From the IMG/VR virus record IMGVR_UViG_3300017987_000047: 64,000 bases of DNA; one strand, given 5' to 3'. Within the stretch, counting starts at the first letter, position 1; every line of letters begins with the position of its first letter. This document shows, in pieces, positions 1,113 through 58,272 of this stretch. The notes under the pieces are model-generated. The model was not told where the DNA came from. It saw only the letters and a program-made list of their open reading frames with translations, and did no database searches. The translations under genes and the position numbers were made by a program. The stretch comes from a virus (Duplodnaviria; Heunggongvirae; Uroviricota; Caudoviricetes).

Positions 1113-2027
1113 ATGCAAGAAACGTTAGCAGGAAAGTGGCCTTCCTTATCTGAAAAAGATAAGCAAGAGGAGCTTGAAAGGCTGCCTATAGAAACTCGTA
1201 TGTTACTGGTAGAGTTAGTTTCTTATATAAAAGTTGAGGCTCAAACACCTTCCCACCCTTATTTAGATTTCTTTGAAATTAAAGATATTCAATATACAAA
1301 AGACCTTTTCCAAGTTATATTCGGTGCTTCCATGTTGGATGTTAAAGGGGTTTGGAAAGCAAAAAACCCTTTTCAGCATTCTTTTATTGATATAAATGCT
1401 ATCGATAACTTTCTTATCGCTTGGCTTGACAAAAGCATCATATTCGACGCGATACTTTTATATAAATCAGGATTTCTAAAGGTCACCTTCAAGGAGGATA
1501 TAGAAAGACTTGATTTGTTTTTTAAAACTCCAGAAGGGAAATTCGCTTCAAAACATCTTCAATCGCTGGAAACATTAGCGCAACAAACCACTTCTCATTT
1601 TAAGGAGGTAGAATGCAAAAAGCTTGAAAGGCTTCGATTAGTTCTGAAACGCAGTAAAATAATAAGCGAGGAAGATAGGGAGGAGCTTGAAATAATTGCT
1701 TCTTTAGCCTTGGAAGGAATAGCTACTGCATATGTACCTATTAAGAATTTTGAAGCCGCCGCGTTAAAACGAGCTTTTAAGAATAAACGCCTTGCGTGGA
1801 AAACTTCAAAAGGGTTAATCTATAATTTAGAGTGTAGAAATCCAAAAACAAACCGGATCTTAAAGGGTAGTTGTATCCTTACCTTAAAGGGGTTTCGAAA
1901 GTTTAAAACTTTCTTAAGGTCTTGTTATGTTGTTGGGTGCCCTGACTGTACCCCAACGCTCACGCAGCGAGAGTGGGAAGAAGTAATCAGGGAAGAACAA
2001 AAAGAGGCTCGGGATGTTAACGGTTGA
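1113..2027 (+). CDS. Hypothetical protein with C-terminal Cys cluster
   Basis: 304-aa ORF overlapping the next gene. Confidence 0.75.
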   Translation: MQETLAGKWPSLSEKDKQEELERLPIETRMLLVELVSYIKVEAQTPSHPYLDFFEIKDIQYTKDLFQVIFGASMLDVKGVWKAKNPFQHSFIDINAIDNFLIAWLDKSIIFDAILLYKSGFLKVTFKEDIERLDLFFKTPEGKFASKHLQSLETLAQQTTSHFKEVECKKLERLRLVLKRSKIISEEDREELEIIASLALEGIATAYVPIKNFEAAALKRAFKNKRLAWKTSKGLIYNLECRNPKTNRILKGSCILTLKGFRKFKTFLRSCYVVGCPDCTPTLTQREWEEVIREEQKEARDVNG

Positions 2028-2811
2028 AACCCTTAGTTACATTGATGAAACATGCCAAAGAGTCTCCCTAGACCAATTAGAAGACGGCGACTTAGTCGTT
2101 GCTTTTAATGTCGGTTTTAGTTCGGCTTTGGTCGAGTTAGCTACCGTATCAGAAATATACCTGGAGTCAGAAAAGGCAGAAATAAGAAAAGGGTTATTTC
2201 GCTTTGCTGATTCACACCCTATTTGGGTCGGGGGAGAAACCACGCTACTTCGGATTTTCGACTCACAGCTTTTCTTTTGCGAGCCTTTTACTTTTATTAA
2301 AGAACTTTGCGAAAAGGCCAGCCTAAGATTTTTAACAGAGCCCCAGTTTAGGGACCGTAATAGGTACAAAACAACTTTCTTATATAATTTTATCTTAGCT
2401 CATTTCCGGTATGCCCAAGAACCTCTTTTTGAAGATTTGTTAGTTAAACAACTCTTGACAAGTGAAAATGCTGCCACCAGAAAATTCTCTAAGGAATACC
2501 TAAAACTTCGTTCCAAGTTTAACTCCTTTAAGGGCAAATCCTATCTAGTTAGGGATCCTGATGGTGAAAAGGTAATACTTGTATGTTTTGATAAACATGA
2601 AACAACATCCTCGGCTATATGTCTAAGAACAAACTACAATTGGCTTCCCTATAGAGACGATGATTATGTAATGAATGTGCGGATAGCGATTTTAGATGAG
2701 GATATGCTTGATAAGTATAACCGAATCTGGGAAGAAGTTTCCCTAACAACTTTTTTAACGAACAAAGATGCAAGAATTCGGAAATTTGCTAAAGAACACT
2801 TAGAAAGGTAA
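2014..2811 (+). CDS. LT-box protein (two copies of the motif)
   Basis: QLLTSENAATRKFSK internally and FLTNKDARIRKFAK at the C-terminus. Confidence 0.8.
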   Translation: MLTVETLSYIDETCQRVSLDQLEDGDLVVAFNVGFSSALVELATVSEIYLESEKAEIRKGLFRFADSHPIWVGGETTLLRIFDSQLFFCEPFTFIKELCEKASLRFLTEPQFRDRNRYKTTFLYNFILAHFRYAQEPLFEDLLVKQLLTSENAATRKFSKEYLKLRSKFNSFKGKSYLVRDPDGEKVILVCFDKHETTSSAICLRTNYNWLPYRDDDYVMNVRIAILDEDMLDKYNRIWEEVSLTTFLTNKDARIRKFAKEHLER

Positions 2812-2833
2812 TATGGTGCGATAAAAGAAAATT

Positions 2834-2860
2834 TGTAATAATCCTTTAATATTAAGATTG
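2834..2860 (+). promoter_or_regulatory. Class-B upstream motif (GTAATAATC..TTAAT..ATTG)
   Basis: Near-identical to 11851 and 63042; each copy precedes an SD and a short ORF. Confidence 0.6.
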
Positions 2861-2886
2861 TACAATAATTAAGGAGTTTTCTAAAA

Positions 2887-2940
2887 ATGTTTACATCTCA
2901 ATACAAACCAACTCCATTGTGGCACGCTTCCCAAGGATAA
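2887..2940 (+). CDS. Putative leader peptide MFTSQYKPTPLWHASQG (17 aa)
   Basis: AAGGAG SD, ATG 2887, TAA 2938-2940; contains a Trp codon and lies upstream of tRNA-Trp. Confidence 0.55.
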   Translation: MFTSQYKPTPLWHASQG

Positions 2941-2994
2941 CTCTATATTTCCTTTTCAAAAAATTTTCGTTTTGATTCCCTAGGAGATTGATTC

Positions 2995-3744: not shown

Positions 3745-4737
3745 ATGAAAATTGAAATCGTTCGAAAATTCGAATTGGATGCTAATTTATTAATCAAGGC
3801 AGTTCAAAAGATAGAAAACCGGGAAATTCATCTTTTGGAATATTGGCTTAACCCCCATCTCGTAGACTTCAACATTGATTTCAATAAAGTCAGCTCAGCT
3901 TTCGCGCCCATATTTTACCGCGTTAATGGTGGGTTATGTCGCTCGGCTCAATTTATTGTAGAGACCGCTGACATAGACGTAGATAGAATACGAGAACAAC
4001 ACCTTGGTTGGTTGGGGTCCCTTAAGAAAAAAGTTTCTTTTCATCAATTTCTTACCTCCGATGACCAAGAGTATCGCCAACTAGCAAAGTTTACACGAAC
4101 AAACGACCCAATTAGAGTTACGCCACCCAGAAGAGAATTCTATAATTTAATCGAGAAGCGAAAAAAAGCAAAAGAGATTTTTGGGGAAGACGTTAAGTTA
4201 TCTCTATATTCTTGGTGTTCCGAGACGCCGGGGGAACGGGCTAGTTTTAGATGGAAAAATATGAATTTTTCTTTTGAATGCGTTTCAATCCCTAAAGCAG
4301 CAACTGCGGAAGAATTCGAAACACAGCTAGTCGGCTATAAAAAGAAACTTGCTCCCTTTCTGCTTACCCCACCACCTCCTAATATCTCTGTATACTTCGT
4401 TTTTCATAAAGATTATTCCCGCTTTTTTTATAACGCAAACGGGAGTAGAATACTTGCTGTTTTAGACCAGCTACAGCCAGAAATGTTTGAGGACAACTCT
4501 GATTTTATAGAAGATCTATTACCATGCTATAGATATTCCATCAAAATTTATAATTTCATTAAAGGCTGGATCTCTAAAAAGCACTTTGAGGAGTTTTATC
4601 TAGGTTTCTCAGTTTTTAGCATCTCTGCTCTTAAAGATAGAATTGATTATGAGATCGGCAAAACTTGCTATTCCCAAAATTTTAACAACTTCAAAAAAAC
4701 ACTTAGAAGAAAATTTCCCAAGGGTGAGAAATGTTAA
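3745..4737 (+). CDS. LT-box protein (internal motif)
   Basis: AGGAGG SD; FLTSDDQEYRQLAK. Confidence 0.8.
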   Translation: MKIEIVRKFELDANLLIKAVQKIENREIHLLEYWLNPHLVDFNIDFNKVSSAFAPIFYRVNGGLCRSAQFIVETADIDVDRIREQHLGWLGSLKKKVSFHQFLTSDDQEYRQLAKFTRTNDPIRVTPPRREFYNLIEKRKKAKEIFGEDVKLSLYSWCSETPGERASFRWKNMNFSFECVSIPKAATAEEFETQLVGYKKKLAPFLLTPPPPNISVYFVFHKDYSRFFYNANGSRILAVLDQLQPEMFEDNSDFIEDLLPCYRYSIKIYNFIKGWISKKHFEEFYLGFSVFSISALKDRIDYEIGKTCYSQNFNNFKKTLRRKFPKGEKC

Positions 4738-5231
4738 AACGGTTTAAACTTGGTCGGGTTATGCAAATTACCCATAGAATTCCGAGCCTTCCCGAAGAAA
4801 CTTTTTCTGTTAATTCCCAGGATGGGGCATGGATAAATGCAACTAAAAAAGGAACTTCGGACACCTGGGTAAGCACTGTAAAAGACCTTTACAAATACCA
4901 CGCTCCGCGTCCTCCTGTAACTAGTGAGGCAATGAAAACTTTTCATGGAATTTTAGTTTCTTTTGATTCCCATATAGGGAAAAAGGTTTCCCTGCATTTA
5001 GTTCAGCCAGAGAAAAAAGGCGGACACATTAATTTTAAACATATTGAGGGAAAATTTGAAATAATAACAAGTCAAGAGATTTCTGTTTTTGAAATGCTTG
5101 GGAACCTTCGTCTCCGCCATTATTACGAGTTTGGAAAATCTCCTGAGCTGCTTACGAATAAGAATCTGGCTATCCGATTGTATGCCAAATTTATCCGCAA
5201 CGAGAGAAAAAGGATCAAAAACTTGTTATGA
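4731..5231 (+). CDS. LT-box protein
   Basis: LLTNKNLAIRLYAK near the C-terminus. Confidence 0.8.
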   Translation: MLKRFKLGRVMQITHRIPSLPEETFSVNSQDGAWINATKKGTSDTWVSTVKDLYKYHAPRPPVTSEAMKTFHGILVSFDSHIGKKVSLHLVQPEKKGGHINFKHIEGKFEIITSQEISVFEMLGNLRLRHYYEFGKSPELLTNKNLAIRLYAKFIRNERKRIKNLL

Positions 5232-5985: not shown

Positions 5986-6369
5986 ATGGAAGAAAAATAT
6001 CTTAAGGTAGTGAAAAAAGAATTGGTTGGGAGAACTTTTGGGTTCTTTGAATTTGGGGATACCCTGAATTTAGTAATTCATTTCACAAAAAACCTAAGTT
6101 ATCTCTTATGCCCATGTACGGGCAACAAGATACCTAGAATACCCGATTCTTCGGGAAAACGGAAAACAGAAGACCCATTACCCCAGATCGGTATTATCCG
6201 GCAATCCTTCAAACATGGAGTTACGGGTTTGCTTGCTCGACGGATCATTTGGTCTTTTGAAAAGGAAGAAGAGGATATTAAAGAGTTATCCTTAGAAGAA
6301 CTACTAACAGCCAAGGAAAATGGTTTTAGAAAAGCGGCAAAGGCACTTCTTAAAGAGTTGCAAGGATGA
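5986..6369 (+). CDS. LT-box protein
   Basis: LLTAKENGFRKAAK at the C-terminus. Confidence 0.8.
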   Translation: MEEKYLKVVKKELVGRTFGFFEFGDTLNLVIHFTKNLSYLLCPCTGNKIPRIPDSSGKRKTEDPLPQIGIIRQSFKHGVTGLLARRIIWSFEKEEEDIKELSLEELLTAKENGFRKAAKALLKELQG

Positions 6370-6803
6370 AGAAGCTTGTGCAAACTAGGGTTGCTGCTGT
6401 TCTTAAGGTGGAAGAGCCTGGCTTCTCTCCTAGGAGAGAGAGGTCGATAGCTTTTCTCGGCTGGCAAGATTATCCAAAAAATGAAAAAGAGTTAATAGCA
6501 ATCGCTCTAACTTTTTTCGAAAGATTTCCTAACTCTACAGTTTATACGGATCTGATATTTGAGGTTCATAGCTTAACCACATTAACCTTTTATGCAAAAG
6601 CTAGCTCGTATACTAAACACTCTTGCGCAAGACAACCCAAACCAGATTTGCCCATTGCTAACTATGAAAAATATAAGGTTAAGGTTTACGATGTCCATGA
6701 AGACCTTTTGGAAGTCCCAAAACTAGAAGCGTTTATTACCTCAAAACTCCCGCTCCTTAGAGCCACAGCGAAAAAGAAAATCAATGGGAATTCGAGTACA
6801 TAA
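6366..6803 (+). CDS. LT-box protein
   Basis: FITSKLPLLRATAK at the C-terminus. Confidence 0.8.
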   Translation: MKKLVQTRVAAVLKVEEPGFSPRRERSIAFLGWQDYPKNEKELIAIALTFFERFPNSTVYTDLIFEVHSLTTLTFYAKASSYTKHSCARQPKPDLPIANYEKYKVKVYDVHEDLLEVPKLEAFITSKLPLLRATAKKKINGNSST

Positions 6804-7482: not shown

Positions 7483-7483
7483 A

Positions 7484-7912
7484 ATGAAATCCCCAAACGA
7501 GGATTTTTGGGTTTGGCGAACAAGCCCAAGTTTTGGTAACGGGACTTTTCATTTTCATAGCCTACCGACTCCAGAAGAAATGCTACGCGCATTTTTACTC
7601 CACGTAGAAGAGGAAAGTAATAGGAAAAATTATATCCTAACAAATATAAGAATGACGGCCACGCACTATTTTTATTCGCTGATTACTCAGCAGGCTGATG
7701 CAGATTTCTCTTATTATTTGCGATTGGGCGAATTCCTAAATTATGATCGAATCTTCCCTGATGAGTTTAATGCTCTTCCCCCTAAAGGAACCCTTCTCAC
7801 CTCTTCCCAAAACCTAGTTCGTAAAATTGGCAAAGCTTTGATCCAAGGGGATAAACAAAAACTTGTACGGCTAGGGGTTCAAGAGGAGTTTTTCAAATGG
7901 CTAAAAGAATAG
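7484..7912 (+). CDS. LT-box protein
   Basis: Start moved to ATG 7484; LLTSSQNLVRKIGK. Confidence 0.75.
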   Translation: MKSPNEDFWVWRTSPSFGNGTFHFHSLPTPEEMLRAFLLHVEEESNRKNYILTNIRMTATHYFYSLITQQADADFSYYLRLGEFLNYDRIFPDEFNALPPKGTLLTSSQNLVRKIGKALIQGDKQKLVRLGVQEEFFKWLKE

Positions 7913-8319
7913 AAAACTTTGAAGAGACCACTTTTAAAGGAATTAGCAAATACCTAACTCATAGCGATCCCCGGGTTAGGAAAATAGTAAAAGATACATT
8001 AGAGATCCCGATGACTTCTGTCGGGGTAACCCAAAAACGATTAGATTATCTTCAAAAGCACTACAAAAACGCTGGCAAAGCCTATGAGGAAATCACAGAA
8101 AACCCTTCCTCGAGAAAAGAACTCACAGAAGCTTTTAATTACCTTATGGCTGTTGGGAATCTTCTTACGGATTTTCTAATATTCGAAAAAATTCGTCTTG
8201 ATCAAGTTTCTATGGAATTTAAGGAACAAAGGTTAAAGGACGAAAAGAAGTCTAATTATTTGATCCTATTAATTACTACAATCGGTATCCTGAGCATCTT
8301 TCTACTGGAGTTACTATAA
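7897..8319 (+). CDS. LT-box protein with N-terminal motif and C-terminal TM helix
   Basis: YLTHSDPRVRKIVK; hydrophobic tail YLILLITTIGILSIFLL. Confidence 0.8.
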   Translation: MAKRIENFEETTFKGISKYLTHSDPRVRKIVKDTLEIPMTSVGVTQKRLDYLQKHYKNAGKAYEEITENPSSRKELTEAFNYLMAVGNLLTDFLIFEKIRLDQVSMEFKEQRLKDEKKSNYLILLITTIGILSIFLLELL

Positions 8320-9046: not shown

Positions 9047-9428
9047 AGTTCATTATGAACCTCATGGAGAAGAAGCCCCTCTTTTCTTTGATAACTCGAC
9101 CTCCCTCGGAGAAATAAAACTTTTTCTCATCGAACGGCTTAATCGAGTCGCGGCCGTGGCGGATCACCAGCCAAAGATAATACAGCTACGGGAAGCAGCG
9201 TCTTCTTCGACAGACCTCTTCAATCCATATTTCTATGATGAGCCGACGTGTGAGCGTTATATCCTGGACTACGATTATTTTGACCTGACTGTAAATGCAA
9301 GGATTAAACATAAGTTCGCTGTCGTAATCAAAAAGGTAGAGGACCCAATTAAAATTCGGGTTAAGAAATATCTCACAAATGCATGCCCAACAATTCGGGA
9401 CATAGCAAAGAAACTAATTGAAAAATGA
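9039..9428 (+). CDS. LT-box protein (paralog of the next gene)
   Basis: YLTNACPTIRDIAK; shares AVxIKKVEDPI with 9425. Confidence 0.8.
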   Translation: MIKVHYEPHGEEAPLFFDNSTSLGEIKLFLIERLNRVAAVADHQPKIIQLREAASSSTDLFNPYFYDEPTCERYILDYDYFDLTVNARIKHKFAVVIKKVEDPIKIRVKKYLTNACPTIRDIAKKLIEK

Positions 9429-9820
9429 TTAAAGTATTTTTTGAGATGATGGGGGATGACCTTTTTCTTTTCGATGATTTAACAACCCAGAAAGAAATTG
9501 AACTTTTCTTAGCAGCAACTGCAATAAAATACGTCACGGAGAAAAACATAAAACGGATGGAGCTAAGACCCGCAATGAAAATTGAGGTAGACCCTGACAT
9601 CTCTTTGTCTAATGACTTTGTGACTAACGATCCCGACCTTGAATTTTTTACGGGGGAAAACCTTGAAGATTGTTATGTTTTCGAATGCTTAAAAGCCTGC
9701 GGGGGTTGGAAGTACGCAGTTATAATCAAAAAGGTAGAGGATCCAATCGAAGTGCAGGCTGAGAAGTATCTCACACACGAATCCCCTATCATCCGGAAAA
9801 TGGCTAAGGATTTAGGATGA
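9425..9820 (+). CDS. LT-box protein
   Basis: YLTHESPIIRKMAK. Confidence 0.8.
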   Translation: MIKVFFEMMGDDLFLFDDLTTQKEIELFLAATAIKYVTEKNIKRMELRPAMKIEVDPDISLSNDFVTNDPDLEFFTGENLEDCYVFECLKACGGWKYAVIIKKVEDPIEVQAEKYLTHESPIIRKMAKDLG

Positions 9821-10314
9821 ATAAAGTTTTTGTACAAGCACAACAATTCGAGTACGACTTTTATGACAAATCCTTTGATGCCTTCCAGCCTAGGATACTT
9901 TGCCTTTCTCCAGAGGACGCAAAAAAAGAAGTAATAGCCTTGGATTGGCTGCTTATCGAAGAAGAAGAAAAGCTGTGGGTTGGTTTTTATAACCCAGAAA
10001 AGTTTAAGAAACAAGGCCGAATTACACAACCCTTCCTTAAAAAACTTATTAAATACCAGAAAAAAGAGAAAAAATTCTATATAGGAAAAGAAGTTTTTGA
10101 CCACGTTTTTCTAAGTATCGGCAGGGAGGAGGAATGGGATGGCAAGACGTCTAAGATGCAAGAATTTATTGATGCCCTGGGAATTAATTTTGACCCAGGC
10201 ATCCAAAAGGGTGTAAAAAGACCCCAAGAATATTTAACTCACAAAGACCTAACTATAAGAAGGTTTGCGAAGGAAGTAATCGGAAACTTACCAAGTATCT
10301 CAGGAGGCATTTAA
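9817..10314 (+). CDS. LT-box protein
   Basis: YLTHKDLTIRRFAK. Confidence 0.8.
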   Translation: MNKVFVQAQQFEYDFYDKSFDAFQPRILCLSPEDAKKEVIALDWLLIEEEEKLWVGFYNPEKFKKQGRITQPFLKKLIKYQKKEKKFYIGKEVFDHVFLSIGREEEWDGKTSKMQEFIDALGINFDPGIQKGVKRPQEYLTHKDLTIRRFAKEVIGNLPSISGGI

Positions 10315-10654: not shown

Positions 10655-10675
10655 CAATCGTTGCCTTCTAGTCTA

Positions 10676-10957
10676 ATGTATAAAAGTTATCTTACATCAA
10701 AAGACCCAGACCTCCGAAACCTCGCAAAAGAAATGCTGGAAGAAGAAAAGAAAGAAAAGGCTCGTAGGCTTGGACTTAGAAAAAAGAAAAACCAGGGGTT
10801 TCTTTTATTCTTTGTCGTTTGTTATGTTGCTTTAGGGCTACTAATGCTCGCGGGTAACATTTTTACGGGGATACGGGAAGGTGGGTGGTATGGCACTTTA
10901 GGTTCCATCCTATTTATTCTCCCTTGGGCTGTACTCGGATTTAAGGAAGGGCCATGA
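10676..10957 (+). CDS. LT-box membrane protein (N-terminal motif, 2 TM)
   Basis: YLTSKDPDLRNLAK followed by two hydrophobic segments. Confidence 0.75.
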   Translation: MYKSYLTSKDPDLRNLAKEMLEEEKKEKARRLGLRKKKNQGFLLFFVVCYVALGLLMLAGNIFTGIREGGWYGTLGSILFILPWAVLGFKEGP

Positions 10958-11451
10958 AACAATTAACTCCATTTCCATCCTTCGATGAAGTTGAAGAGAA
11001 CGATATCCTTTTTATTGGAGGGGAGCTGCTAGATACTTCCGTTGCCCTCTACTATTGGGCCAACTCTGAAAATAGCGAATCCCTTTCCGCCCGCACGTTT
11101 GCGGAGGATCTCTTTTTCAGTAATTGGGTCTATATCCCCAACGAAGGGATTCTAGATTATTTTTCTAAGTTCTTTGATTACCGGCAATATGTTGGGGATA
11201 GTATCTTCGCAACTTCTACTACACGCAATCCCGATGCTTTCCCAATATTTATTCAAATCGAACCTCAAGCCGACGACTACGCTATCATCTGTGTACAAAG
11301 CAAATATATGAAGACAGAGGAACGCCTGTTCCTTCCACCTAAACTAGTTAAAGAAACCGACGTATTCTTAACTCATAACGATCATGCTGTCCGTAGAGAA
11401 ATAGCAAAACTTCATACGGAGAGGATCAATGAGGCAGATGAGGAAGTCTAA
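10954..11451 (+). CDS. LT-box protein
   Basis: FLTHNDHAVRREIAK. Confidence 0.8.
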   Translation: MKQLTPFPSFDEVEENDILFIGGELLDTSVALYYWANSENSESLSARTFAEDLFFSNWVYIPNEGILDYFSKFFDYRQYVGDSIFATSTTRNPDAFPIFIQIEPQADDYAIICVQSKYMKTEERLFLPPKLVKETDVFLTHNDHAVRREIAKLHTERINEADEEV

Positions 11452-11836
11452 ACTAAAAGAAGATCTGAAGTTTGGTCTTAAAAAACGTCTTACAGACCCA
11501 GTGCCCGAAATTCGAGAAATATGCAGAATACTCCTCGCTAACCAAAATAAGTGGGATAAAGATTATATCGAACAGGTAGGAGACCTAAGAGTTAAGAAGC
11601 TAAGAAAATTGGTGGAGGATTCTGAAAAAGAGTGGGATAAGAATATAGATAAACTCAGCGAAGAAATTCTCAAAGGAATAAAGCCAAACGACGCTCTTAC
11701 CTGGGCGAAGGCAAGGACCCCCAACCTTAGTCTTCTTCGGGAGCACTTAAATAGGTGTTCTTTTTTTCAACATCTTTTGATAAGCCTTTTTAACGAAGAT
11801 TTTAGAGAGGATGAATCTTTTTTAGATTATATATAA
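11429..11836 (+). CDS. LT-box protein (N-terminal variant)
   Basis: RLTDPVPEIREICR. Confidence 0.7.
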   Translation: MRQMRKSKLKEDLKFGLKKRLTDPVPEIREICRILLANQNKWDKDYIEQVGDLRVKKLRKLVEDSEKEWDKNIDKLSEEILKGIKPNDALTWAKARTPNLSLLREHLNRCSFFQHLLISLFNEDFREDESFLDYI

Positions 11837-14071: not shown

Positions 14072-14418
14072 TGGAACGAAATATACTTGAGGGAGTTTGG
14101 GTCGAAATTATCGACGAAGAAGATTTCAAGTCCTATTTTAGGGATATACGAGTACAGAGAGGAAAATATCTTGGCCCCGGAAAATACTTGAAATTGTATT
14201 ATGAGCAACCTTGTCCCCGCGGTTGTTGTTATGATACCGTAATTGAATTATTGTCCAGCGAGGAAGCAAAAAAGGAAGTCCTTGAGTCCCTAGAAGAACA
14301 TCTATTTTTGTTAGAGCCCCTTTTCGGAGGAGACCTTGCTACTAAATTATTAACACACGAAGACCCGGAAGTACGTTGCTTAGCAGCAAGTCAGATTAAA
14401 GTTTTAGAGGAGTTTTAA
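14071..14418 (+). CDS. LT-box protein
   Basis: LLTHEDPEVRCLAA. Confidence 0.8.
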   Translation: MERNILEGVWVEIIDEEDFKSYFRDIRVQRGKYLGPGKYLKLYYEQPCPRGCCYDTVIELLSSEEAKKEVLESLEEHLFLLEPLFGGDLATKLLTHEDPEVRCLAASQIKVLEEF

Positions 14419-16864: not shown

Positions 16865-16966
16865 AGACTTACCTCCAATACTTTTTAGTATAATATACAG
16901 GTTATTTTGCGAAAAAATTGTCACATGGGGACTCATTACCCGCATTTAGAGATGGAGAGTTAAGAG
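16857..16966. repeat. Diverged ~110-nt direct repeat, copy 1
   Basis: Aligns with 21931-22039 (TTCTCCACA..CTTACCTCC..GTATAATATACA..). Confidence 0.75.
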
Positions 16967-17686
16967 ATGACGTTAAAGGGCCGGGTTATTCAAGATTTTC
17001 AAAAGTATATATCAAAAGACTTTTTAGGTAGCCTAGTCCAGCCTTATTTTGATTATGTTTTGGATCTGGACCCTTTTCCGGGATGGAAAGAAACTTGGAA
17101 AAAACTTAATAACTTAGATAATGTTACTATTTCGATGGAGATGGGCTACGCGGATTTCGAAAACCCCACCAGAAGATGCAGTCTTCTTTGTTTCGCTGTT
17201 AACCCTATTTATATTCCCATTCATAAAAAGGATATCCCTAAGAATTGGATTTTCTTTGAAGATGCTATAACACACTACGATAAAAAGATTAATAGACTGT
17301 TATGTAATATAATGGATGGGGTAAGGAGCAGGTGTAAAAAGTTTTTTACTAAACATTTTAATATTCTCTATAAAGCAGACCCGTTTCACTGGTCCTATAT
17401 GACTTACGTAAAAGAGAAAACTAAAGTGGAAGTAGAAGTAGAGGTCCCGTTGAAAAATTCTTGGCAAGACGGGACTTACGTAAGGGAAGAAATGGAAGTG
17501 GAAATGGAAGTAGAGGTCCCGTTGAAAAATTCTTGGCTATACCGAATAGCCTCCCTCTCGGATGATCTTGGATTTGATCTTTCACTATTTGAAGAAATTG
17601 AAGCAGACCTCCCCCGAGAAGCTTATCTAACATCTCAATACCCCTATTTAAGAAATCTTGCAAGAAAAGAGTTAGGATTAAAATAG
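16967..17686 (+). CDS. LT-box protein with an internal 24-aa tandem duplication
   Basis: YLTSQYPYLRNLAR; EVEVPLKNSW occurs twice (72-nt unit). Confidence 0.8.
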   Translation: MTLKGRVIQDFQKYISKDFLGSLVQPYFDYVLDLDPFPGWKETWKKLNNLDNVTISMEMGYADFENPTRRCSLLCFAVNPIYIPIHKKDIPKNWIFFEDAITHYDKKINRLLCNIMDGVRSRCKKFFTKHFNILYKADPFHWSYMTYVKEKTKVEVEVEVPLKNSWQDGTYVREEMEVEMEVEVPLKNSWLYRIASLSDDLGFDLSLFEEIEADLPREAYLTSQYPYLRNLARKELGLK

Positions 17687-17733
17687 CACATTAAAATCCC
17701 AGTTAATTACGATTCGCTATTTCTAATCCAATT

Positions 17734-18759: not shown

Positions 18760-18771
18760 AAAGCGAATTAC

Positions 18772-36793: not shown

Positions 36794-37124
36794 TATCCGA
36801 AGCCTTTTAACTAAGCTTGAAGAGTGGTTAGGGGATGAAGGGAAAGCTCATTTCCAGGAATACTACGATAAATACCAAACAGTCTCCCCTGTAATAAGCG
36901 GCAAAATCCCTCATCCTGTTCATTTTCGGGAAGGGATGCAAATCCGAAATTACTTGAGAAAACAAAAAGAGTGTGAAGAATGGGATGACCCCACTTTAGA
37001 TGATAGCTGGGTGATTCTCATTGAAGCAGTTGTTCTGGGGCATCATAAAGACCCAGAGGCCTTAACGCACGAAATTCCTTTAATTCGGGCAATTTCCAAA
37101 GCATGGAACCCATGTATAAAATAA
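36777..37124 (+). CDS. LT-box protein
   Basis: ALTHEIPLIRAISK; PHPVHFREGMQIRN. Confidence 0.8.
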   Translation: MEFQNNIRSLLTKLEEWLGDEGKAHFQEYYDKYQTVSPVISGKIPHPVHFREGMQIRNYLRKQKECEEWDDPTLDDSWVILIEAVVLGHHKDPEALTHEIPLIRAISKAWNPCIK

Positions 37125-37462
37125 CCTTTTCGAGAAGAGGAATTGGGGAAGAGCAAGTTTATCTTCTTGAAAATTTTCCATCTCGAAAACAAATTGCGGC
37201 CCTGTTTTTACGGTACTTAAAATTTGCTAGGACAGGATGGCAGACGCTTATCAGCTCCGAATATTCTGCAGACTCTGAACTTTCTGGTGGGTTCTTTTGT
37301 CGTTTTGCTTCTGACGGCGGCATTGCGGCCTGTGAAATTATGTATTGGATTGAATTGGCAAAAGGCGAGAGCCCTAACCTTGAACTGTACCTCACTCACG
37401 AACGGGAAGCTACCCGAAAAGCTGCTAAAATCATTTTAAAAGGATTAACGCCCAAATGTTAA
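37103..37462 (+). CDS. LT-box protein
   Basis: YLTHEREATRKAAK. Confidence 0.8.
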   Translation: MEPMYKITFSRRGIGEEQVYLLENFPSRKQIAALFLRYLKFARTGWQTLISSEYSADSELSGGFFCRFASDGGIAACEIMYWIELAKGESPNLELYLTHEREATRKAAKIILKGLTPKC

Positions 37463-38361
37463 GTTTATTTAAGAGACATCATAAAGAGCTTGATCGAGTT
37501 AGTATTACATACGAACCCCGTATTCGCTTCGATCAAAAGTATGAGCTTGCTTTAGCAAAATTTGATATCCCGAAAGACCTATTACTTAATTTCCCCGGCT
37601 TCCCCTTTGGGGGTTTTGTTCGAGATACTTTTCATTCAGACACTCCAAAGGACTTAGATCTCTTTTTCATTAGCGCAGTAAATATTAGGGCAGTTGCAAA
37701 GTTTCTGAAACAGAAGGGTTGGGTGTCTCAAGAATCGCGGCGGATAGATTCATGGAAATGGGGAAGCTATAGTGAAATAATTAGGAGGAAGTCGGGGTAT
37801 GTAAAATGTTTTACTAAGCATGGGCAAAAAATCGACTTATTCTTTAAGTACGATATGATTTCTGCCAAGGAAGAGCTAGTCTTACTAGCACAGGCATATG
37901 CCTGGGACTTAAGCCTTGACCGCTTCTTCCTATGGGCAGACCCAGTATCCGAAGGTCGCCCGAGCTGGAAAGAAGACCATTTACAAGATACGGAAGACTC
38001 TGTTTTGAAGCAGCTCTCTTCTAAAAAACTTTAACTTAACCGGGAATACGCGAGTTGGTTAACAATAAAGGATACTGAGGCTATAAGGATTCAGTCTGAA
38101 TATCTTAAGGAAAAGATTCAATCTCTTCTTCAAAAAGGTTGGGACCTTGAACTTGGGAAAAGTAATATTTTTGGAAATCGCTTGCTACTCCCAAAGGCAA
38201 AGGTTGAAATCATTAAGATGCTCCCAGAAAAAACAGTTCGGGCGCATCTTTCAACCTATTTGACCCACGCGTCGCCTAAGACGCGACTAAAAATAAAAGA
38301 CATTCTGCGAGACTACCATCCGGAAATCGTTGCGAACTTCCTACATAAGAGGAATGCTTAA
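37456..38361 (+). pseudogene. CCA-adding/poly(A) polymerase-like nucleotidyltransferase with a C-terminal LT-box, interrupted by in-frame TAA 38032-38034
   Basis: GGFVRD..PKDLDLF head motif; frame stays open 108 codons past the TAA and includes YLTHASPKTRLKIK. Confidence 0.65.
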
Positions 38362-39701: not shown

Positions 39702-40099
39702 TGAAGGTCTTTGAAGCAAAGACAATTAAAACCCACCCCCACCGGGATAGCCCTTTCTGCTGGGAAACACCCTTAGCATATAAAGCATTAAGTGACGAAG
39801 AGTTTATCTTCTTGGGCTTACTAAAGTCCATAGAAAAACTTGGGGAAGAAGACAGTATAATATCCTATAAAATCTGTACTGCACATAATAATCAAGGGAG
39901 TTTAACTATCGTAGAGACTATTATTGAGGGCCGCTACAAATTCGGATATTCGTTTTGGATTCAATCCTGGATAACCTATAGACCTAAGTCTATTTTTACC
40001 CCAACGCCCGTTGAGGATGCCCCTAACCTTCAGCAAGGTTTAACATCCAAATACCCCTTAATTCGGCAATACGTAAAAATGAGATTAAAGAATGATTAA
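39701..40099 (+). CDS. LT-box protein
   Basis: GLTSKYPLIRQYVK. Confidence 0.8.
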   Translation: MKVFEAKTIKTHPHRDSPFCWETPLAYKALSDEEFIFLGLLKSIEKLGEEDSIISYKICTAHNNQGSLTIVETIIEGRYKFGYSFWIQSWITYRPKSIFTPTPVEDAPNLQQGLTSKYPLIRQYVKMRLKND

Positions 40100-41526: not shown

Positions 41527-41945
41527 TGTTTGCATCGTCCCAAAAAACTCTTAGGCTAACACAAAGTTTCCCCTTTAAAACGAAAATTATTGCCCAACTT
41601 TGGGGCCATTCTTATAATAATTTAGTTTATGAGCAACCCCTGAATAAGATTCCTTATCGAAAGGACTTAGCCCCTCTTATTCTTGCTATTTTGGAAGTTT
41701 ATAAATCCTCCAAGGACTTGGAAAAGCTAGTTAACATAGAATTAAAAACTTCCGTTCTCCTACAAGCCGAAATTATACTTGACTATGGGGTTGATTCAGA
41801 GTACTATACCTTAAATATAGTAAAAATAAAAGAAGAAGAGGTTCTCCCGCTTCCCCGGATAGAAAATTACTTAACAAATAAACTTCCCATTTTTCGTCGG
41901 GTAGCAAAACAAGTTATTAAAAAGAGGGATAGCGAGTATAGTTAG
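41526..41945 (+). CDS. LT-box protein
   Basis: YLTNKLPIFRRVAK. Confidence 0.8.
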   Translation: MFASSQKTLRLTQSFPFKTKIIAQLWGHSYNNLVYEQPLNKIPYRKDLAPLILAILEVYKSSKDLEKLVNIELKTSVLLQAEIILDYGVDSEYYTLNIVKIKEEEVLPLPRIENYLTNKLPIFRRVAKQVIKKRDSEYS

Positions 41946-42010: not shown

Positions 42011-42376
42011 ATGTTTGAACAGTATATCACACACAAAGATCCTAAAATTAGGGGGCTGGTAAAAAAGGTTAACCGTCTTTTAGAAAAAGGGGAATTCAAG
42101 CATGCGGCTGGTTTCGTCCAAAAAGAGCGAGAGGAGCTTTCAAGAATGATTAAGGCCCCCGTGAGGCCCATAACAACTAACGCCCAGTATAGGGCTGAAA
42201 TTGAATTAGATAAAAGGATCGAAGAGTATCAAAGTATTATCTACCCACTTGAATTAGCAGTTACAAAAAAATATTATCGAAGTTTAAGAGAAAGACGAGA
42301 AAAAACACATCGAAAGTTATTGTGGTTATACGTTGCAGTTATTGTAGCCTACATGCTATTACAAATTTTTGGATAA
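42011..42376 (+). CDS. LT-box protein with N-terminal motif and C-terminal TM helix
   Basis: YITHKDPKIRGLVK; LLWLYVAVIVAYMLL. Confidence 0.8.
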   Translation: MFEQYITHKDPKIRGLVKKVNRLLEKGEFKHAAGFVQKEREELSRMIKAPVRPITTNAQYRAEIELDKRIEEYQSIIYPLELAVTKKYYRSLRERREKTHRKLLWLYVAVIVAYMLLQIFG

Positions 42377-45461: not shown

Positions 45462-45803
45462 ATGTTCAATAATAAGGATCCACGATGGAGTTCAATGATA
45501 CCGGAACCTGGTATCTATGATATAACAGAGGGGCACCACGTTTTTATTAGGTATAGCGGGCAATCCCCGATATTTGTTTTTATAAAAACAAAAGCCTTAG
45601 AACAATTCAAACAAGGGGAACCCGCTGTTAGTCTATTATTTGTAACACCAAGCAGATATTCAGAAATGTTTTGTAACTTAGGGGCAGCAGGAACGATTTT
45701 CCATGTTATTATAGAGGAGAAGTTTAATTCTAAGTCAGTAAGCCCCACTCAATTTCTCACGCATCCTTCCCCACAGATTCGGCAAGCTGCGAAAGACTTC
45801 TAA
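45462..45803 (+). CDS. LT-box protein
   Basis: FLTHPSPQIRQAAK. Confidence 0.8.
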   Translation: MFNNKDPRWSSMIPEPGIYDITEGHHVFIRYSGQSPIFVFIKTKALEQFKQGEPAVSLLFVTPSRYSEMFCNLGAAGTIFHVIIEEKFNSKSVSPTQFLTHPSPQIRQAAKDF

Positions 45804-45804: not shown

Positions 45805-46152
45805 ATGTTTGAAAAACCTCCATACTGTGTTATTTTTAACTCTATTGAAATATATAAGCAGGAAATTTATTGGCTCCCAGATAAGCCAGACGACTTAACT
45901 ATTAAATCGCTTGTTATTTCTTATCTCCATAAATATGAAAAATCTTTAGTGAATCAGGTGTTGAAGATTCAGATTAAAGAACCCTCGTCGACGAATTGGA
46001 GAAAAGAAATTCTTGTCTTTCTCCGGCATGCTACGATGCATATTCAATTCATTGAAGGTTTCCCTCAACTTGATTTTCCTTGTATGGAAGAAATGCTAAC
46101 ACACGAAAATGCTTATATTCGTAAAATAGCAAAAATGAAACTTGAGGAATAG
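45805..46152 (+). CDS. LT-box protein
   Basis: MLTHENAYIRKIAK. Confidence 0.8.
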   Translation: MFEKPPYCVIFNSIEIYKQEIYWLPDKPDDLTIKSLVISYLHKYEKSLVNQVLKIQIKEPSSTNWRKEILVFLRHATMHIQFIEGFPQLDFPCMEEMLTHENAYIRKIAKMKLEE

Positions 46153-46154: not shown

Positions 46155-46448
46155 ATGTTTGAGAAGAAACTTTTCGAAGTCCAGTTAACAAAGCAGGTTT
46201 ATCTTTATTTCGAAGATAATGTTTTGCATATTATCACCCCTAATGGGTATCGAAAAGTTCCCAGGATAAGTAGGGTTTATGTTTACTGGGAAGGTGCATT
46301 ACAAAAGCATTTCACCCTAAATTATTCTGTTGCATCAATGGTAGAACAGCCTCTCTCAATTCTTCTCACACACCCAGATCCTGGAGCGCGAGATTGGGCA
46401 AAAGAAAAGCTTAGAGTTGCGCTAATTTCACAAAATAATAATTTTTAG
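46155..46448 (+). CDS. LT-box protein
   Basis: LLTHPDPGARDWAK. Confidence 0.8.
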   Translation: MFEKKLFEVQLTKQVYLYFEDNVLHIITPNGYRKVPRISRVYVYWEGALQKHFTLNYSVASMVEQPLSILLTHPDPGARDWAKEKLRVALISQNNNF

Positions 46449-48441: not shown

Positions 48442-48936
48442 ATGTTGGAACGCAAAATACCAGCAATTAAATATCTGGGGCTTTTTCTTTCCTATGGTTT
48501 GGTTGCTTGGGTTATTATCTTTTGCTCGATACAGCTCGCACAAATAAGTGCCTGGTTTCTTTTCTTCTGGTTAGCTCTGTTTTTGCTCGGGTTTTTCGTT
48601 GCAAGATTAGCAGAATCTATCAAAAATTTTGGGGAGCTGGAACATCGACGGATTTATATTGTAGAACGAGAAGACGCTTTGGGAAAAGTTAACGTCCTTA
48701 TTTGTTTTTGCACCCTTTTCAAAATAAAGATTTACGCGAGCGAGTATTTTTGTAAGAAAAATAGCAATATCAAAGCCGGAGAAATTATAACGGTATCCAG
48801 ACTTAATCCTAAAACCTATCAGGCAATTGATTTTATACACCTTTATTACTACAAAGTAGGGGTAACCGAGCTACTAACGTATCCTTACCCAAGCGCAAGG
48901 AAATTTGCGAAACTAGTTCTAAACAAGAAAATATGA
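48442..48936 (+). CDS. LT-box membrane protein (2 N-terminal TM)
   Basis: LLTYPYPSARKFAK. Confidence 0.8.
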   Translation: MLERKIPAIKYLGLFLSYGLVAWVIIFCSIQLAQISAWFLFFWLALFLLGFFVARLAESIKNFGELEHRRIYIVEREDALGKVNVLICFCTLFKIKIYASEYFCKKNSNIKAGEIITVSRLNPKTYQAIDFIHLYYYKVGVTELLTYPYPSARKFAKLVLNKKI

Positions 48937-50279: not shown

Positions 50280-50347
50280 TTAAAACTTAACGGATGCAAA
50301 CAAAGGGCTGCGAAAACTCGCAAAAGAAATTTATGAAGGAAATCCAG

Positions 50348-50691: not shown

Positions 50692-51216
50692 ATGAAGGCA
50701 ATATCACTTTTCAAGACGATTGGCGCGGCAAGTCAGCAGGGCGAATTACACTGGGCTTGGAATGTTTTCACAAAGGACAAAATAACAGAAGATTTTGTTC
50801 GGAAGATATTACTCGACTATCTTATTTATATTGAAGAAGGCAACCTTAGAACAGACATTGATACCGACAATCCTATCTATTTGACAAAGGTATCTGCTTT
50901 TAGAAATTATAACCTTTTTAAGGTTCTCGGGATTAAGAAACAGAAGCTTTGTTATTCGAAAAACTTTTTTTATGAAAAACTTATTCCAGAGGTTAAACGC
51001 CAATGGAAATTGTTAGGCTTTCTCCCGACCGGATTTTATCCGATTATTTATCACAGAAGACCGAGTATAAAGGATAGCGTTCGACTCGGGGCTAAACTTT
51101 TTGTTACATCAGAGTTAAAAGAAACCCACACAAAAAAACCAAGCATGCAATTTCTCACCCATAAACATAAGGTAATAAGGGACATCACAAAATGCTTAGA
51201 AAACTCGTCTTTATAA
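50692..51216 (+). CDS. LT-box protein
   Basis: FLTHKHKVIRDITK. Confidence 0.8.
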   Translation: MKAISLFKTIGAASQQGELHWAWNVFTKDKITEDFVRKILLDYLIYIEEGNLRTDIDTDNPIYLTKVSAFRNYNLFKVLGIKKQKLCYSKNFFYEKLIPEVKRQWKLLGFLPTGFYPIIYHRRPSIKDSVRLGAKLFVTSELKETHTKKPSMQFLTHKHKVIRDITKCLENSSL

Positions 51217-51558: not shown

Positions 51559-51933
51559 ATGGATTATCCAATTCGACATGTCGAATTCCTGAGAAGCAAG
51601 ACTAGGCTTGTTGTGCGGGTCACAGCCGATTTTTATCTTGATTTAGACCAACCGGATGAGTTTGTAAGACAGACGATTTACTTTTCAGAAAAATTTGTAC
51701 CAGGGACGCCATATAAATACCCGATTGAAAATAAGTATGTTATTTTTGGAAAATCTGTTCTCTGTCCCTCTTCCCGGGGCCTTGAAGAGGTTGAAGCCGC
51801 AGAACTACTAACTCACGATTCTCCAGAAGTGAGAAAAGCTATAAAACTATACCTTAGCTCTTCCCTAAGAGAATTTGAAGAATTTTGCATGCGGCTGAAT
51901 TGTGAAAATATAACATCGGAGGCGTGCCCTTGA
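51559..51933 (+). CDS. LT-box protein
   Basis: LLTHDSPEVRKAIK. Confidence 0.8.
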   Translation: MDYPIRHVEFLRSKTRLVVRVTADFYLDLDQPDEFVRQTIYFSEKFVPGTPYKYPIENKYVIFGKSVLCPSSRGLEEVEAAELLTHDSPEVRKAIKLYLSSSLREFEEFCMRLNCENITSEACP

Positions 51934-56332: not shown

Positions 56333-56584
56333 ATGAAAATTCCAATTGAGAAGCAGCATAGATTATTTAAAAATGTAGGCTCTATCCCATATCTCTATTT
56401 TTCAAAATCCAGAGTCTATTCAATTGGAAAATCAGAACATGCTACCATATATCCGGCAAGGACGGCAACGGAGTACAAGGTAATGAAGGCCGAAGAAGAA
56501 GTCCCCCTAACTACTCTATTAACTCATCCAAGCCCAAAAATAAGGAAGTGGGCGAAGAGGGTCACTAACCAAAAAACCTCTTAG
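56333..56584 (+). CDS. LT-box protein
   Basis: LLTHPSPKIRKWAK. Confidence 0.8.
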   Translation: MKIPIEKQHRLFKNVGSIPYLYFSKSRVYSIGKSEHATIYPARTATEYKVMKAEEEVPLTTLLTHPSPKIRKWAKRVTNQKTS

Positions 56585-56596
56585 GATTAAGTTGAA

Positions 56597-57181
56597 ATGC
56601 GTATTACAGAAGCTTGTTTTAGTTTCTTTGGTGGCCTTCAAAAAGTAAGGATTCTGCCGAAGTCCCGAAGAACAATTATTATTGGCCATAACGGGTCAGG
56701 CAAAACAACTTTGCTAAAAACTTTATATACATATTTTAAAGGAGACCATATCTTACAGGAAGAAGAGGCGGTTAAAACTGACTTAGAGTTTTCTCGCCTT
56801 GCTTTTGTTTGGGCAGCAGTTGGAGAACAAATAGGGGACGATACAATAAAGGCTCCTATCCTTGGGAATCATAATGATCATTTTGATACCCATGATATTT
56901 TGAAAAAGGTAATTTCAGAATTTGACCTGGACCCAAACAAACTAAAGAAAAGTAAGGCAGGGGGCCATTTAAGACTTTACGCGATGCTTGAAGCTGCGGC
57001 GAAAATTTCGCCGGATGGGATTTTACTTGTTGATGAACTTGGGAGACATTTACAAATTGAGACCCAATATTTATTAGTCAAAGCATTAACAAGCATTCTA
57101 CCTGAAGGGCATCTTATTGGGACAACCCATTCTCCATGTGTTCTTTCTAACCGCGATGATGATGAAATCATAACACTTTAA
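56597..57181 (+). CDS. ABC-type/AAA ATPase (AAA_15/AAA_21-like)
   Basis: Walker A GHNGSGKT, Walker B LLVDE, H-loop TTHSP. Confidence 0.8.
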   Translation: MRITEACFSFFGGLQKVRILPKSRRTIIIGHNGSGKTTLLKTLYTYFKGDHILQEEEAVKTDLEFSRLAFVWAAVGEQIGDDTIKAPILGNHNDHFDTHDILKKVISEFDLDPNKLKKSKAGGHLRLYAMLEAAAKISPDGILLVDELGRHLQIETQYLLVKALTSILPEGHLIGTTHSPCVLSNRDDDEIITL

Positions 57182-57183
57182 AA

Positions 57184-57558
57184 ATGTTTGAACCATATAC
57201 ATTAGTGAAAATAAAGTTTATCCCTTCCTCCCCATACTCGGTTCAAAGAAAAGAAGAAGAGGAAATCGCCTTTGGAATTTTTAAAAGAATAGCGTACGGA
57301 AAACACCGTAAAAGTAAAATGTCAAAAATGTATTTTGAAGTTGACACTATTATCCCTACCGAAAACTGTTGGAATTTTGGGGACTCCCCAGAATTTCTTG
57401 ACGATGCCCACCTTTCCCTTTCTAACTGTGACTTCGAGCAGCTTTCTTTTGACGCCGCTCCCGATTTTATTAAAGAACTTTTACTCTCCCCTACTGCACT
57501 AACACATAAATGCTCGGGTATTAGAGTTTTGGCGAGAAGATTGCAAAATGCTATCTAG
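57184..57558 (+). CDS. LT-box protein
   Basis: ALTHKCSGIRVLAR. Confidence 0.8.
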   Translation: MFEPYTLVKIKFIPSSPYSVQRKEEEEIAFGIFKRIAYGKHRKSKMSKMYFEVDTIIPTENCWNFGDSPEFLDDAHLSLSNCDFEQLSFDAAPDFIKELLLSPTALTHKCSGIRVLARRLQNAI

Positions 57559-57946
57559 ATTTCAAAGAAGAAAGGGAAATAGCGCCTGGTATAACTATAT
57601 CCGGTTTAAGTCCTACCTTGCCATTCCTATCTTCCCAATACTATTAATATTAACTGGAATTTTTGTTCTTGTAACTTTTAGTTGTTTATACTTGGGTCGG
57701 CTATACGAAAAAGTTAGGGGGTGTAATTGTTCTGGAAGTTGGTTTTTCTCATGGCCGTCACACAAGGATTATAACTACAACAACAAATGTCCTTACCATT
57801 ACGGGGTACTCCGAGCGAAAGAAGAGTTCGAGATATCTCTGGGGGAGGGGACAGACCCACGGGCCCTATTAACATCCCAAAATAAGTATATACGTAAATA
57901 TGCTAAAAGGCACTTAAAGAAATGCGCACGTCAATCAGTGAAATAA
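57548..57946 (+). CDS. LT-box membrane protein with a CxC..CPYH domain
   Basis: TM segment; LLTSQNKYIRKYAK; paralog of the next gene. Confidence 0.8.
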   Translation: MLSRFQRRKGNSAWYNYIRFKSYLAIPIFPILLILTGIFVLVTFSCLYLGRLYEKVRGCNCSGSWFFSWPSHKDYNYNNKCPYHYGVLRAKEEFEISLGEGTDPRALLTSQNKYIRKYAKRHLKKCARQSVK

Positions 57947-58272
57947 TTGGGTTTGCTATTTCGGTTATCCTTTCTGGCCTTTTTCCACAATATATTCTGG
58001 TCATTATCCCCCTTGTGTTTGGTTCAATGATTCTTTATCAAAAATCCCACGGCTGTACTTGCTTTTCTTGGAATGCCTCCCTACCTGACCGGCGGGATAT
58101 CCCATGTCCTTATCATAGCCAGCTCTACGCAAAGGAAGAGGTTAAGAATGCAGCAAAATCAGGGAGGGGTGCCATTACTTCTCTCCTAACATCCAAGAAT
58201 AAGTATTTCAGGTCTGCCGCAAGAGAGTTTCTTAAGAAACACCCCTTAACCAAAGGAAAAGACAATGAGTGA
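57922..58272 (+). CDS. LT-box membrane protein with a CxC..CPYH domain
   Basis: TM segment; LLTSKNKYFRSAAR. Confidence 0.8.
   Translation: MRTSISEIIGFAISVILSGLFPQYILVIIPLVFGSMILYQKSHGCTCFSWNASLPDRRDIPCPYHSQLYAKEEVKNAAKSGRGAITSLLTSKNKYFRSAAREFLKKHPLTKGKDNE

Follow-up and report, generated by a model that had tools for sequence, protein, structure and literature searches.

A HEAT-like helical block recurs at the ends of many small proteins in a 64-kb window of phage DNA and may serve as a docking tag

A recurrent protein block in the window

The 64,000-nucleotide stretch of IMG/VR virus record IMGVR_UViG_3300017987_000047 (the whole of it hereafter called the window) was analysed for a short protein block, the tag, that recurs on many of its predicted proteins, the carriers. 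The window contains ~132 densely packed plus-strand genes and 10 tRNA genes, at a GC content of ~0.39-0.41. The 132 called plus-strand genes formed the gene set, and ~78 kb of a 335-kb genome was read overall. One window protein was encoded letter for letter on a 335,479-bp ENA metagenome contig, where the window corresponds to ~106.9-170.9 kb, and a second carrier was matched on a 384-kb contig. In view of the sizes of these contigs, and of an HK97-type capsid gene present on related metagenomic contigs, the window is taken to belong to the genome of an uncultivated jumbo phage.

The tag spans ~22 residues and reads hydrophobic-L-T-[HSN]-x2-P-x-[IVL]-R-K-x-A-K-x2-L. Its full logo is hydrophobic/Pro-x-Leu-x-x-aromatic/Leu-Leu-Thr-His/Ser/Asn-x-x-Pro-x-Ile/Val/Leu-Arg-Lys-hydrophobic-Ala-Lys-x-hydrophobic-Leu. 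A hidden Markov model (HMM) was built from 23 seeds found with a regular expression and used to scan all six frames, with 9 bits as the cut-off for strong tags. We counted 40 copies in 39 of the 132 genes (~30%), and 37 copies scored at least 9 bits. The initial annotation had listed about 42 tagged open reading frames (ORFs); 39 were robust, the ORF at 10954 carried a variant with a one-residue insertion, and those at 46818 and 53480 were degenerate look-alikes only.

The six-frame scan returned ~38 matches of at least 9 bits, every one in a long plus-strand ORF, and the top minus-strand match scored 8.3 bits. A loose core expression (L-T, x5, [IVLM]-R, x2, small residue) matched 28 times on the plus strand as compared with three times on the minus strand. 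The core expression was observed 26 times, as against a mean of 0.27 and a maximum of 4 in 500 residue shuffles. There were no HMM matches of at least 9 bits in 20 shuffled proteomes or in the reversed proteome, and none above 5 bits in ~109 kb of unrelated phage contigs (L002-L007). The motif thus reached a comparable frequency in none of the controls that had been proposed for it. As the expression used to collect seeds demanded L-T and R, circularity was checked by searching for the second half alone ([IVL..]-R-x2-[AV..]-[KR]). Among the 52 matches, Thr stood at the expected upstream position in 37 and Leu in 36, indicating that the invariance of these residues is not an artefact of seed choice.

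Selection on the tag acts at the level of protein and not of DNA, as had been claimed, since synonymous codons vary freely at its invariant residues. All six Arg codons are used for the invariant Arg (CGG/AGA/CGA/CGT/AGG/CGC, in 10, 8, 7, 7, 7 and 1 copies), all four Thr codons for the invariant Thr and five codons for the preceding Leu. Many tags lie near gene ends, where the signals of the next gene sit, as might be expected of a DNA or RNA element that happened to be translated. A promoter, ribosome-binding site or repeat is nevertheless ruled out by this codon variety; moreover, the distance to the stop codon varies and there are N-terminal and internal copies. Chance or composition is ruled out by the shuffles and the reversed proteome, which, like the minus strand, gave nothing at or above 9 bits. 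We regard an origin of either kind as next to impossible.

When the 37 strong copies were anchored on Thr, information content exceeded background solely between about -7 and +15, with no conservation upstream of -7. Thr, Arg, Lys and a small residue at +10 were nearly invariant. On a helical wheel of the second helix, the hydrophobic residues occupied one face and were flanked by Arg and Lys. The copies are listed in Table 1.

Table 1. Tags and tag-like peptides in the window. Carriers are named in the text by the first coordinate of the gene; aa, amino acids; TM, transmembrane.
Feature	Gene	Tag coordinates	Strand	HMM score (bits)
Internal first copy	2014-2811 (265 aa)	2437..2505	+	13.8
C-terminal second copy	2014-2811	2737..2805	+	29.2
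Weak internal tag	3745-4737 (330 aa)	4033..4101	+	7.9
C-terminal tag	4731-5231	5133..5201	+	22.0
C-terminal tag	5986-6369	6286..6354	+	13.1
C-terminal tag	6366-6803	6717..6785	+	12.9
Tag 21 aa before end	7406-7912	7778..7846	+	21.0
N-terminal tag	7897-8319 (tail-anchored; TM aa 122-140)	7936..8004	+	29.7
C-terminal tag	9039-9428 (paralog of 9425)	9354..9422	+	30.2
C-terminal tag	9425-9820	9752..9817	+	21.4
C-terminal tag	9817-10314	10216..10284	+	27.7
N-terminal tag	10661-10957 (membrane; TM segments after tag)	10673..10741	+	30.1
Variant tag near C-terminus	10954-11451	11351..11410 (approximate)	+	4.5 (read from translation)
N-terminal tag	11429-11836 (all-helical)	11471..11539	+	21.9
C-terminal tag	14059-14418	14332..14400	+	26.8
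C-terminal tag	16967-17686 (239 aa)	17609..17677	+	23.8
Internal tag	26255-26839 (paralog of 32560)	26408..26476	+	28.6
Weak C-terminal tag	26882-27283	27212..27280	+	7.0
Internal tag	27946-28494	28273..28341	+	21.4
N-terminal tag	28798-29355 (leucine-rich repeats)	28804..28872	+	23.7
C-terminal tag	29352-29780	29694..29762	+	31.2
C-terminal tag	30429-30803	30717..30785	+	25.2
Internal tag	32560-32961	32761..32829	+	25.9
Weak C-terminal tag	34357-34803	34714..34782	+	7.2
C-terminal tag	34800-35120	35013..35081	+	21.7
C-terminal tag	36777-37124	37044..37112	+	25.2
C-terminal tag	37103-37462	37373..37441	+	10.8
Tag in ORF after TAA ending gene	37456-38034	38242..38310	+	10.7
C-terminal tag	39701-40099	40022..40090	+	27.3
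C-terminal tag	41526-41945	41853..41921	+	9.9
N-terminal tag	42011-42376 (tail-anchored; TM aa 103-121)	42011..42076	+	18.6
C-terminal tag	45462-45803	45738..45800	+	21.7
C-terminal tag	45805-46152	46078..46146	+	30.9
C-terminal tag	46155-46448	46347..46415	+	17.9
C-terminal tag	48442-48936 (two N-terminal TM segments)	48856..48924	+	9.3
Tag-like peptide	29-codon frame without start codon	50284..50370	+	17.3
C-terminal tag	50692-51216	51136..51204	+	11.2
Tag 24 aa before end	51559-51933	51790..51858	+	15.5
C-terminal tag; top-scoring copy	56333-56584 (83 aa)	56501..56569	+	33.0
C-terminal tag	57184-57558	57481..57549	+	24.4
C-terminal tag	57548-57946 (membrane; GCxC...CPYH)	57851..57919	+	28.1
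C-terminal tag	57922-58272 (paralog of 57548)	58168..58236	+	11.3

Placement of the tag and nature of its carriers

Placement was assessed for the 37 strong tags, and the terminal bias noted in the initial annotation was borne out. Twenty-five end no more than 12 residues from the C-terminus, where uniform placement predicts 4.5 (maximum 13 in 10,000 trials); the other 12 comprise seven internal tags and five at the N-terminus. Of the latter, three sit on tail-anchored membrane proteins, 7897 and 42011 being tail-anchored and 10661 carrying TM segments after the tag, and another sits on a leucine-rich repeat (LRR) protein of IpaH type. The C-terminus of a tail-anchored protein lies in the membrane, so that the N-terminal tag of these carriers suggests a module dependent on a free end, probably a cytoplasmic one. 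TM segments were found in six of the 39 carriers, in agreement with the earlier listing of membrane proteins among them; in 48442, 57548 and 57922, N-terminal TM segments are combined with a C-terminal tag.

The carriers had been described as diverse, and they were indeed mostly unrelated to one another, but they were mostly orphans without recognisable domains and included a few small paralog clusters. BLAST with the tags masked linked only three carrier pairs. Smith-Waterman comparison of tag-stripped sequences, normalised by shuffling, gave a mean Z of 0.19 for carrier-carrier pairs (3.2% above 3), as compared with 0.07 for carrier-non-carrier pairs (1.9%) and 0.12 for non-carrier pairs (2.0%), and Z exceeded 5 in only a few of the 666 tag-stripped carrier pairs. 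Detectable similarity along the full length, which would have accounted for the shared block, was therefore confined to these few pairs. As far as sequence can tell, the carriers are mostly not one family.

None of the 39 carriers had a Pfam match at E<1e-5 or a confident PHROG match. Confident Pfam domains were found in ~12 of 74 non-carriers of at least 70 residues and in none of the 39 carriers (Fisher p=0.008), consistent with the earlier claim that recognisable enzymes lack the tag. The recognisable tag-free proteins include CoaE, NAD kinase, Thg1, an Fpr-like NAD-binding domain and a radical-SAM protein, as well as a polynucleotide kinase/phosphatase, a DNA methylase and a transglutaminase-like domain. 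Carriers were also more basic, with a median isoelectric point (pI) of 9.1 as compared with 6.5 for non-carriers.

Several different architectures were seen among the carriers. The AlphaFold2 (AF2) model of the 45805 family (mean pLDDT 80) comprises an alpha/beta domain (strand-strand-helix-strand-strand-strand) and a lower-confidence linker, followed by helices at 94-98 and 103-114 that cover the tag; Foldseek gave no significant match for this model in PDB. For 29352-29780, the structures nearest to the Atlas model were beta-rich and WYL/RimP-like, at TM scores <0.5. In 28798-29355, the N-terminal tag precedes ~5 leucine-rich repeats of the LPxLP type in the translation (Pfam LRR_4, E 0.029), which confirms the LRR carrier that had been reported. 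Repeats of this type are a class known from the IpaH/SspH type III effectors. The product of 2014-2811 consists of two domain-plus-tag units in series, with the tag copies 100 residues apart. The product of 11429-11836, a possible mini HEAT array, had a weak Pfam match to Cnd1 (E 6e-4, below the cut-off) and an AF2 model with a pLDDT of 52, readable only as helical.

Individual carriers showed further peculiarities. The 16967-17686 product contains an internal tandem duplication, in which an acidic segment of the VEVEVEVPLKNSW type is present twice. The adjacent paralogs 57548 and 57922 have hydrophobic N-terminal segments, ambiguous in topology, and a GCxC...CPYH Cys/His motif that is a possible metal site. 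In 26255-26839, the longer paralog of 32560-32961, the internal tag is followed by a collagen-like G-P-T-G-L-T run, with weak PHROG matches to tail fibres. The nucleotidyltransferase named earlier as a carrier needs a qualification. Its gene, 37456-38034 (GGFVRD...DLD), stops at a TAA at 38032-38034 and is joined to a tag only across this in-frame stop, after which the frame continues for 108 codons (to 38361) with the tag included; 37456-38361 could be a split gene, a pseudogene or a case of stop-codon read-through. The tag-like frame 50284-50370 overlaps, in another frame, the start of gene 50294-50689 and adjoins an IS605-type TnpB gene on the minus strand (48981-50174). This frame is probably what remains of an N-terminal tag that was lost through a frameshift or the insertion. 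At the site of 50294-50689, strain L009 has a 113-aa gene in place of the 131-aa gene.

An island of low GC content (0.33) at 15830-23674 is free of tags except for 16967-17686 near its left edge. It encodes a minus-strand HNH/zinc-ribbon protein, an 867-aa Eco57I-type methylase and a 544-aa orphan, and gave a weak T5orf172-like match (E 0.008, below the cut-off). The island is probably a mobile or restriction-modification-like insertion.

The tag in relatives and its likeness to known systems

Further carriers were found on both sides of the window, four in the 8 kb upstream and seven in the 6 kb downstream, bringing the total to at least 50 within the 78 kb read. A degenerate DNA pattern of the commonest form of the tag matched 32 metagenome loci, 12 of them from one JGI sample series (Ga0180431-34, GC ~0.38). 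Short contigs of this series contained two to four carriers each, with 3-4 carriers per 2-3 kb in related contigs; some of the short contigs show synteny to the window, their proteins being 40-85% identical to its own. Comparison of six ortholog pairs between the phage and a metagenomic relative gave 69% identity within the tag and 47% over the remaining sequence (p=4e-6). The difference was large for 46155-46448 and its ortholog on contig L040, with 22 of 23 tag residues identical and 35% identity elsewhere. An ortholog of 45805-46152 was also found on L040, and the ortholog of 7897-8319 on L023 retains its tag.

In L026 and L020 (20 kb, of the same series), the run of large genes around a capsid-like gene is tag-free, the only tagged genes being one at the beginning of L026 and two that closely follow the run. 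In L026, at 7335-9940, the capsid-like gene has directly behind it a gene for a LAGLIDADG homing endonuclease with several helix-turn-helix domains.

A second lineage of lower GC content (0.28; L028 and L012) has a variant of the tag at the C-terminus of 10-12 of 27 small ORFs. Here Val or Ala often takes the place of Thr, and an aromatic-Asp pair (consensus Y-D) closes the helix. BLAST of the low-GC contig against the window genome gave tag-level matches only. The carriers of the 14-kb L028 locus look like one paralog family, though BLAST finds no similarity among them. A shift in the tag across a whole lineage would be compatible with co-evolution of the tag and a reader of that lineage's own, but these carriers also share a weak N-terminal motif, so that common descent is another possible explanation.

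Neither GenBank phages nor IMG/VR yielded a close relative of this phage. BLASTN and TBLASTN against GenBank phages yielded no relative of the carriers, an IMG/VR search with one carrier returned nothing, and three degenerate DNA patterns of the tag gave only chance matches in IMG/VR. Carrier 2014-2811 matched only itself among 5.8 billion proteins. A profile of one paralog cluster, run against 1.84 billion proteins, retrieved its own members and one relative only (P0007, a relative of carrier 9425), in which the tag is retained. The tag-free radical-SAM gene had only distant matches among GenBank phages, and the IMG/VR contigs carrying it at 55-59% identity were themselves tag-free. No similar tag was found in Pfam, PHROGs, GenBank phages, IMG/VR or the literature searched (full text).

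The initial annotation had likened the block to half of a HEAT/PBS-lyase repeat. Its logo fits the HEAT consensus L..LL.D.D..VR..A..aL, save for T-[HSN] in place of x-D, and exact matches to the tag DNA pattern in bacterial genomes proved to be the last repeat of Pfam HEAT_2/HEAT_PBS arrays. A profile of the 37 tags searched against PDB sequences retrieved designed armadillo and other helical-repeat proteins. It also retrieved the RNA-contacting helix of the U1-C zinc finger, whose sequence is nearly that of the first half of the tag, a match taken as chance or convergent. From this sequence likeness, the block looks like one repeat unit of the HEAT/PBS-lyase type (helix-turn-helix). Known repeats of this kind (PF02985, PF03130, PF13646) share with the tag the end of helix A, a Pro turn and the [IV]-R-x2-A-x3-L helix B. 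They differ in forming tandem arrays, whereas the tag is a lone copy at a protein end, with Thr-[His/Ser/Asn] for x-Asp, and the remainder of its carriers, unlike that of HEAT proteins, is not a solenoid. No carrier contained an array of three or more units, the tag being single in 38 of 39 carriers and double in 2014. The Pfam HEAT gathering score was reached by no carrier (the best, 14059, had E 0.016 and 15.9 bits against a cut-off of 23.5), and 37 of the 39, all but 14059 and 11429, had no HEAT match in Pfam.

Short boxes shared by otherwise variable proteins are known from several systems. F-box and PRANC proteins likewise carry a short helical box in common alongside variable domains, and the tag-LRR arrangement of 28798 resembles that of F-box-LRR proteins. 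In those systems, however, a Skp1-like hub is known, while the tag has no sequence relation to either box (no carrier had an F-box or PRANC match in Pfam), occurs in a bacterial setting and is mostly joined to no recognisable binding domain; the LRR of 28798 was the one clear target-binding-type domain fused to a tag, the other carriers being orphans. The RXLR motif of oomycetes similarly marks a large, fast-evolving set of unrelated small proteins of a parasite. It differs in being N-terminal, after a signal peptide, and in serving secretion or processing, whereas the tag is a predicted helical hairpin, mostly C-terminal, in a phage. Shared boxes on variable proteins and the HEAT fold were already known; the new element is the use of a single HEAT-type unit to mark the ends of the products of ~30% of the accessory genes in a phage.

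A proposed docking module weighed against its rivals

The block is discrete, selected as protein, more constrained than the proteins that carry it, biased to the termini and present on proteins of different kinds. It sits at a free end after a linker, its invariant polar residues lie beside a hydrophobic face, and neither the housekeeping-type enzymes nor the head genes seen in a relative carry it. For these reasons our leading explanation, held tentatively, is that the tag, a single repeat, is a portable module for docking on one partner common to the carriers. In its ~22 residues, the module would comprise a short helix and a basic amphipathic helix joined by a Thr-capped turn, and it would have been placed at a free end of many small proteins of the jumbo phage that evolve fast and are unrelated. 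A single partner from the phage or the host, probably located in the cytoplasm during infection, may read the hairpin, whose hydrophobic face would be flanked by the invariant Thr, Arg and Lys. Variable effector or adaptor domains would thereby be brought to the same machine or place. That the partner is single, and what it does, we infer. The LRR carrier 28798, with its variable domain and common box, suggests a role as an adaptor or in recruitment, which we do not rank against one in localisation.

A bolder form of the docking idea, which we consider possible but do not lean towards, is an address code on the scale of the proteome. A lone HEAT-type repeat on at least a quarter of the accessory proteins would be read by one receptor, perhaps through complementation of an open HEAT-like surface by the repeat, so that the effector repertoire is gathered at one machine or compartment. 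Co-evolution of tag and receptor as a pair would explain the different consensus of the low-GC lineage.

Several observations weigh against docking. Within the ~78 kb read of the 335-kb genome no partner of the tag was identified, and binding is something that we infer. Arrays are the usual working form of HEAT repeats, and a hairpin on its own may be unable to fold. Seven of the 37 strong tags are internal. Small paralog clusters exist (9039/9425/37103/45805, 57548/57922, 26255/32560 and 34800/51559), and carriers are often neighbours of similar length (median 132 aa); part of the spread was therefore by duplication and not by movement of a module. Finally, the L028 carriers share a weak N-terminal motif, ~L-x-R-L-aromatic-x-[IV]-Y.

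The last of these points lead to the main rival, in which the carriers are one huge family, diverged from a small ancestor by duplication, and the hairpin is a private stabilising C-terminal cap with no partner. The similar sizes, the frequent tandem runs, the detectable paralog clusters and the second motif of the low-GC carriers are all consistent with it, and large viruses often show lineage-specific expansion of families that bear a motif. Yet tag-stripped carriers show no excess similarity and nothing is conserved upstream of -7. The set moreover spans five N-terminal tags, an LRR protein, two membrane topologies and an alpha/beta domain, and divergence alone cannot shift a motif from one end of a protein to the other. 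Nor would a private cap need invariant exposed Thr, Arg and Lys on a terminal hairpin. We judge this descent from a single ancestor to be unlikely as the whole explanation, albeit worth serious attention.

The remaining alternatives give the hairpin a different task. It could dock cargo to the procapsid interior or scaffold, for injection of the proteins with the DNA. A basic, terminal helical hairpin on unrelated small proteins would suit this role, as would the high pI of the carriers, and terminal peptides or hairpins dock unrelated cargo in the T4 capsid-targeting sequence, the P22 scaffolding C-terminal helix-turn-helix and the encapsulin cargo peptides. The tag shares with these the short terminal peptide on unrelated proteins. 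It departs from them in that their cargoes are few and encoded near the shell, whereas here ~30% of the genes in 78 kb would need packaging. The 39 carriers in 64 kb are neither few nor all soluble: several are integral membrane proteins, unlikely as capsid cargo. They also lie in small-gene arrays and not among head genes, and the head module of L026 is tagged only at its edges and tag-free inside. Packaging is thus improbable. A degron or turnover tag, by which a host or phage protease or unfoldase would remove a class of early proteins on schedule, would account for the C-terminal bias, the small accessory carriers and the tag-free enzymes, a pattern that suits a stability signal common to a class of proteins. 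A C-terminal position is frequent among bacterial degrons and adaptor tails, and in SspB-type adaptors a C-terminal peptide after a linker tethers a variable body to one machine, ClpX. SspB, however, is a single protein with a short unstructured tail, and known bacterial degrons are likewise short and unstructured, while the tag is a 22-residue hairpin spread across the proteome. The tag seldom occupies the extreme C-terminus (its distance from the end is 0-12 aa), some copies are N-terminal or internal, and no protease gene or Clp component was seen in the DNA read; we therefore give turnover little credence. The same low standing falls to a generic binder, an amphipathic Arg/Lys helix tethering proteins to DNA, RNA or acidic lipids. 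The basic face beside the hydrophobic one and the match to the U1-C helix speak for it, and the HEAT-like repeats of AlkD-type glycosylases bind the DNA backbone. Such binders tolerate much variation in sequence, however, which the tag hardly shows at Thr, Arg, Lys and the small +10 residue, and the membrane carriers have anchors of their own.

Most genes of large phages are small orphans that offer no handle for study, and ~40 of those in one window share one module. Even if the carriers were a family by descent, their number and divergence would be unusual for a phage gene family, and its 22-residue signature has been missed by annotation with Pfam and PHROG. If one partner reads the tag, a single pull-down would suffice to tie dozens of uncharacterised proteins to one shared machine or site. 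Docking through the tag would then bring to phages an organising principle so far known from eukaryotic parasites and viruses (RXLR, F-box/PRANC), with a HEAT-type repeat acting as a stand-alone docking unit and providing a short tag of natural origin by which cargo in infected cells could be addressed.

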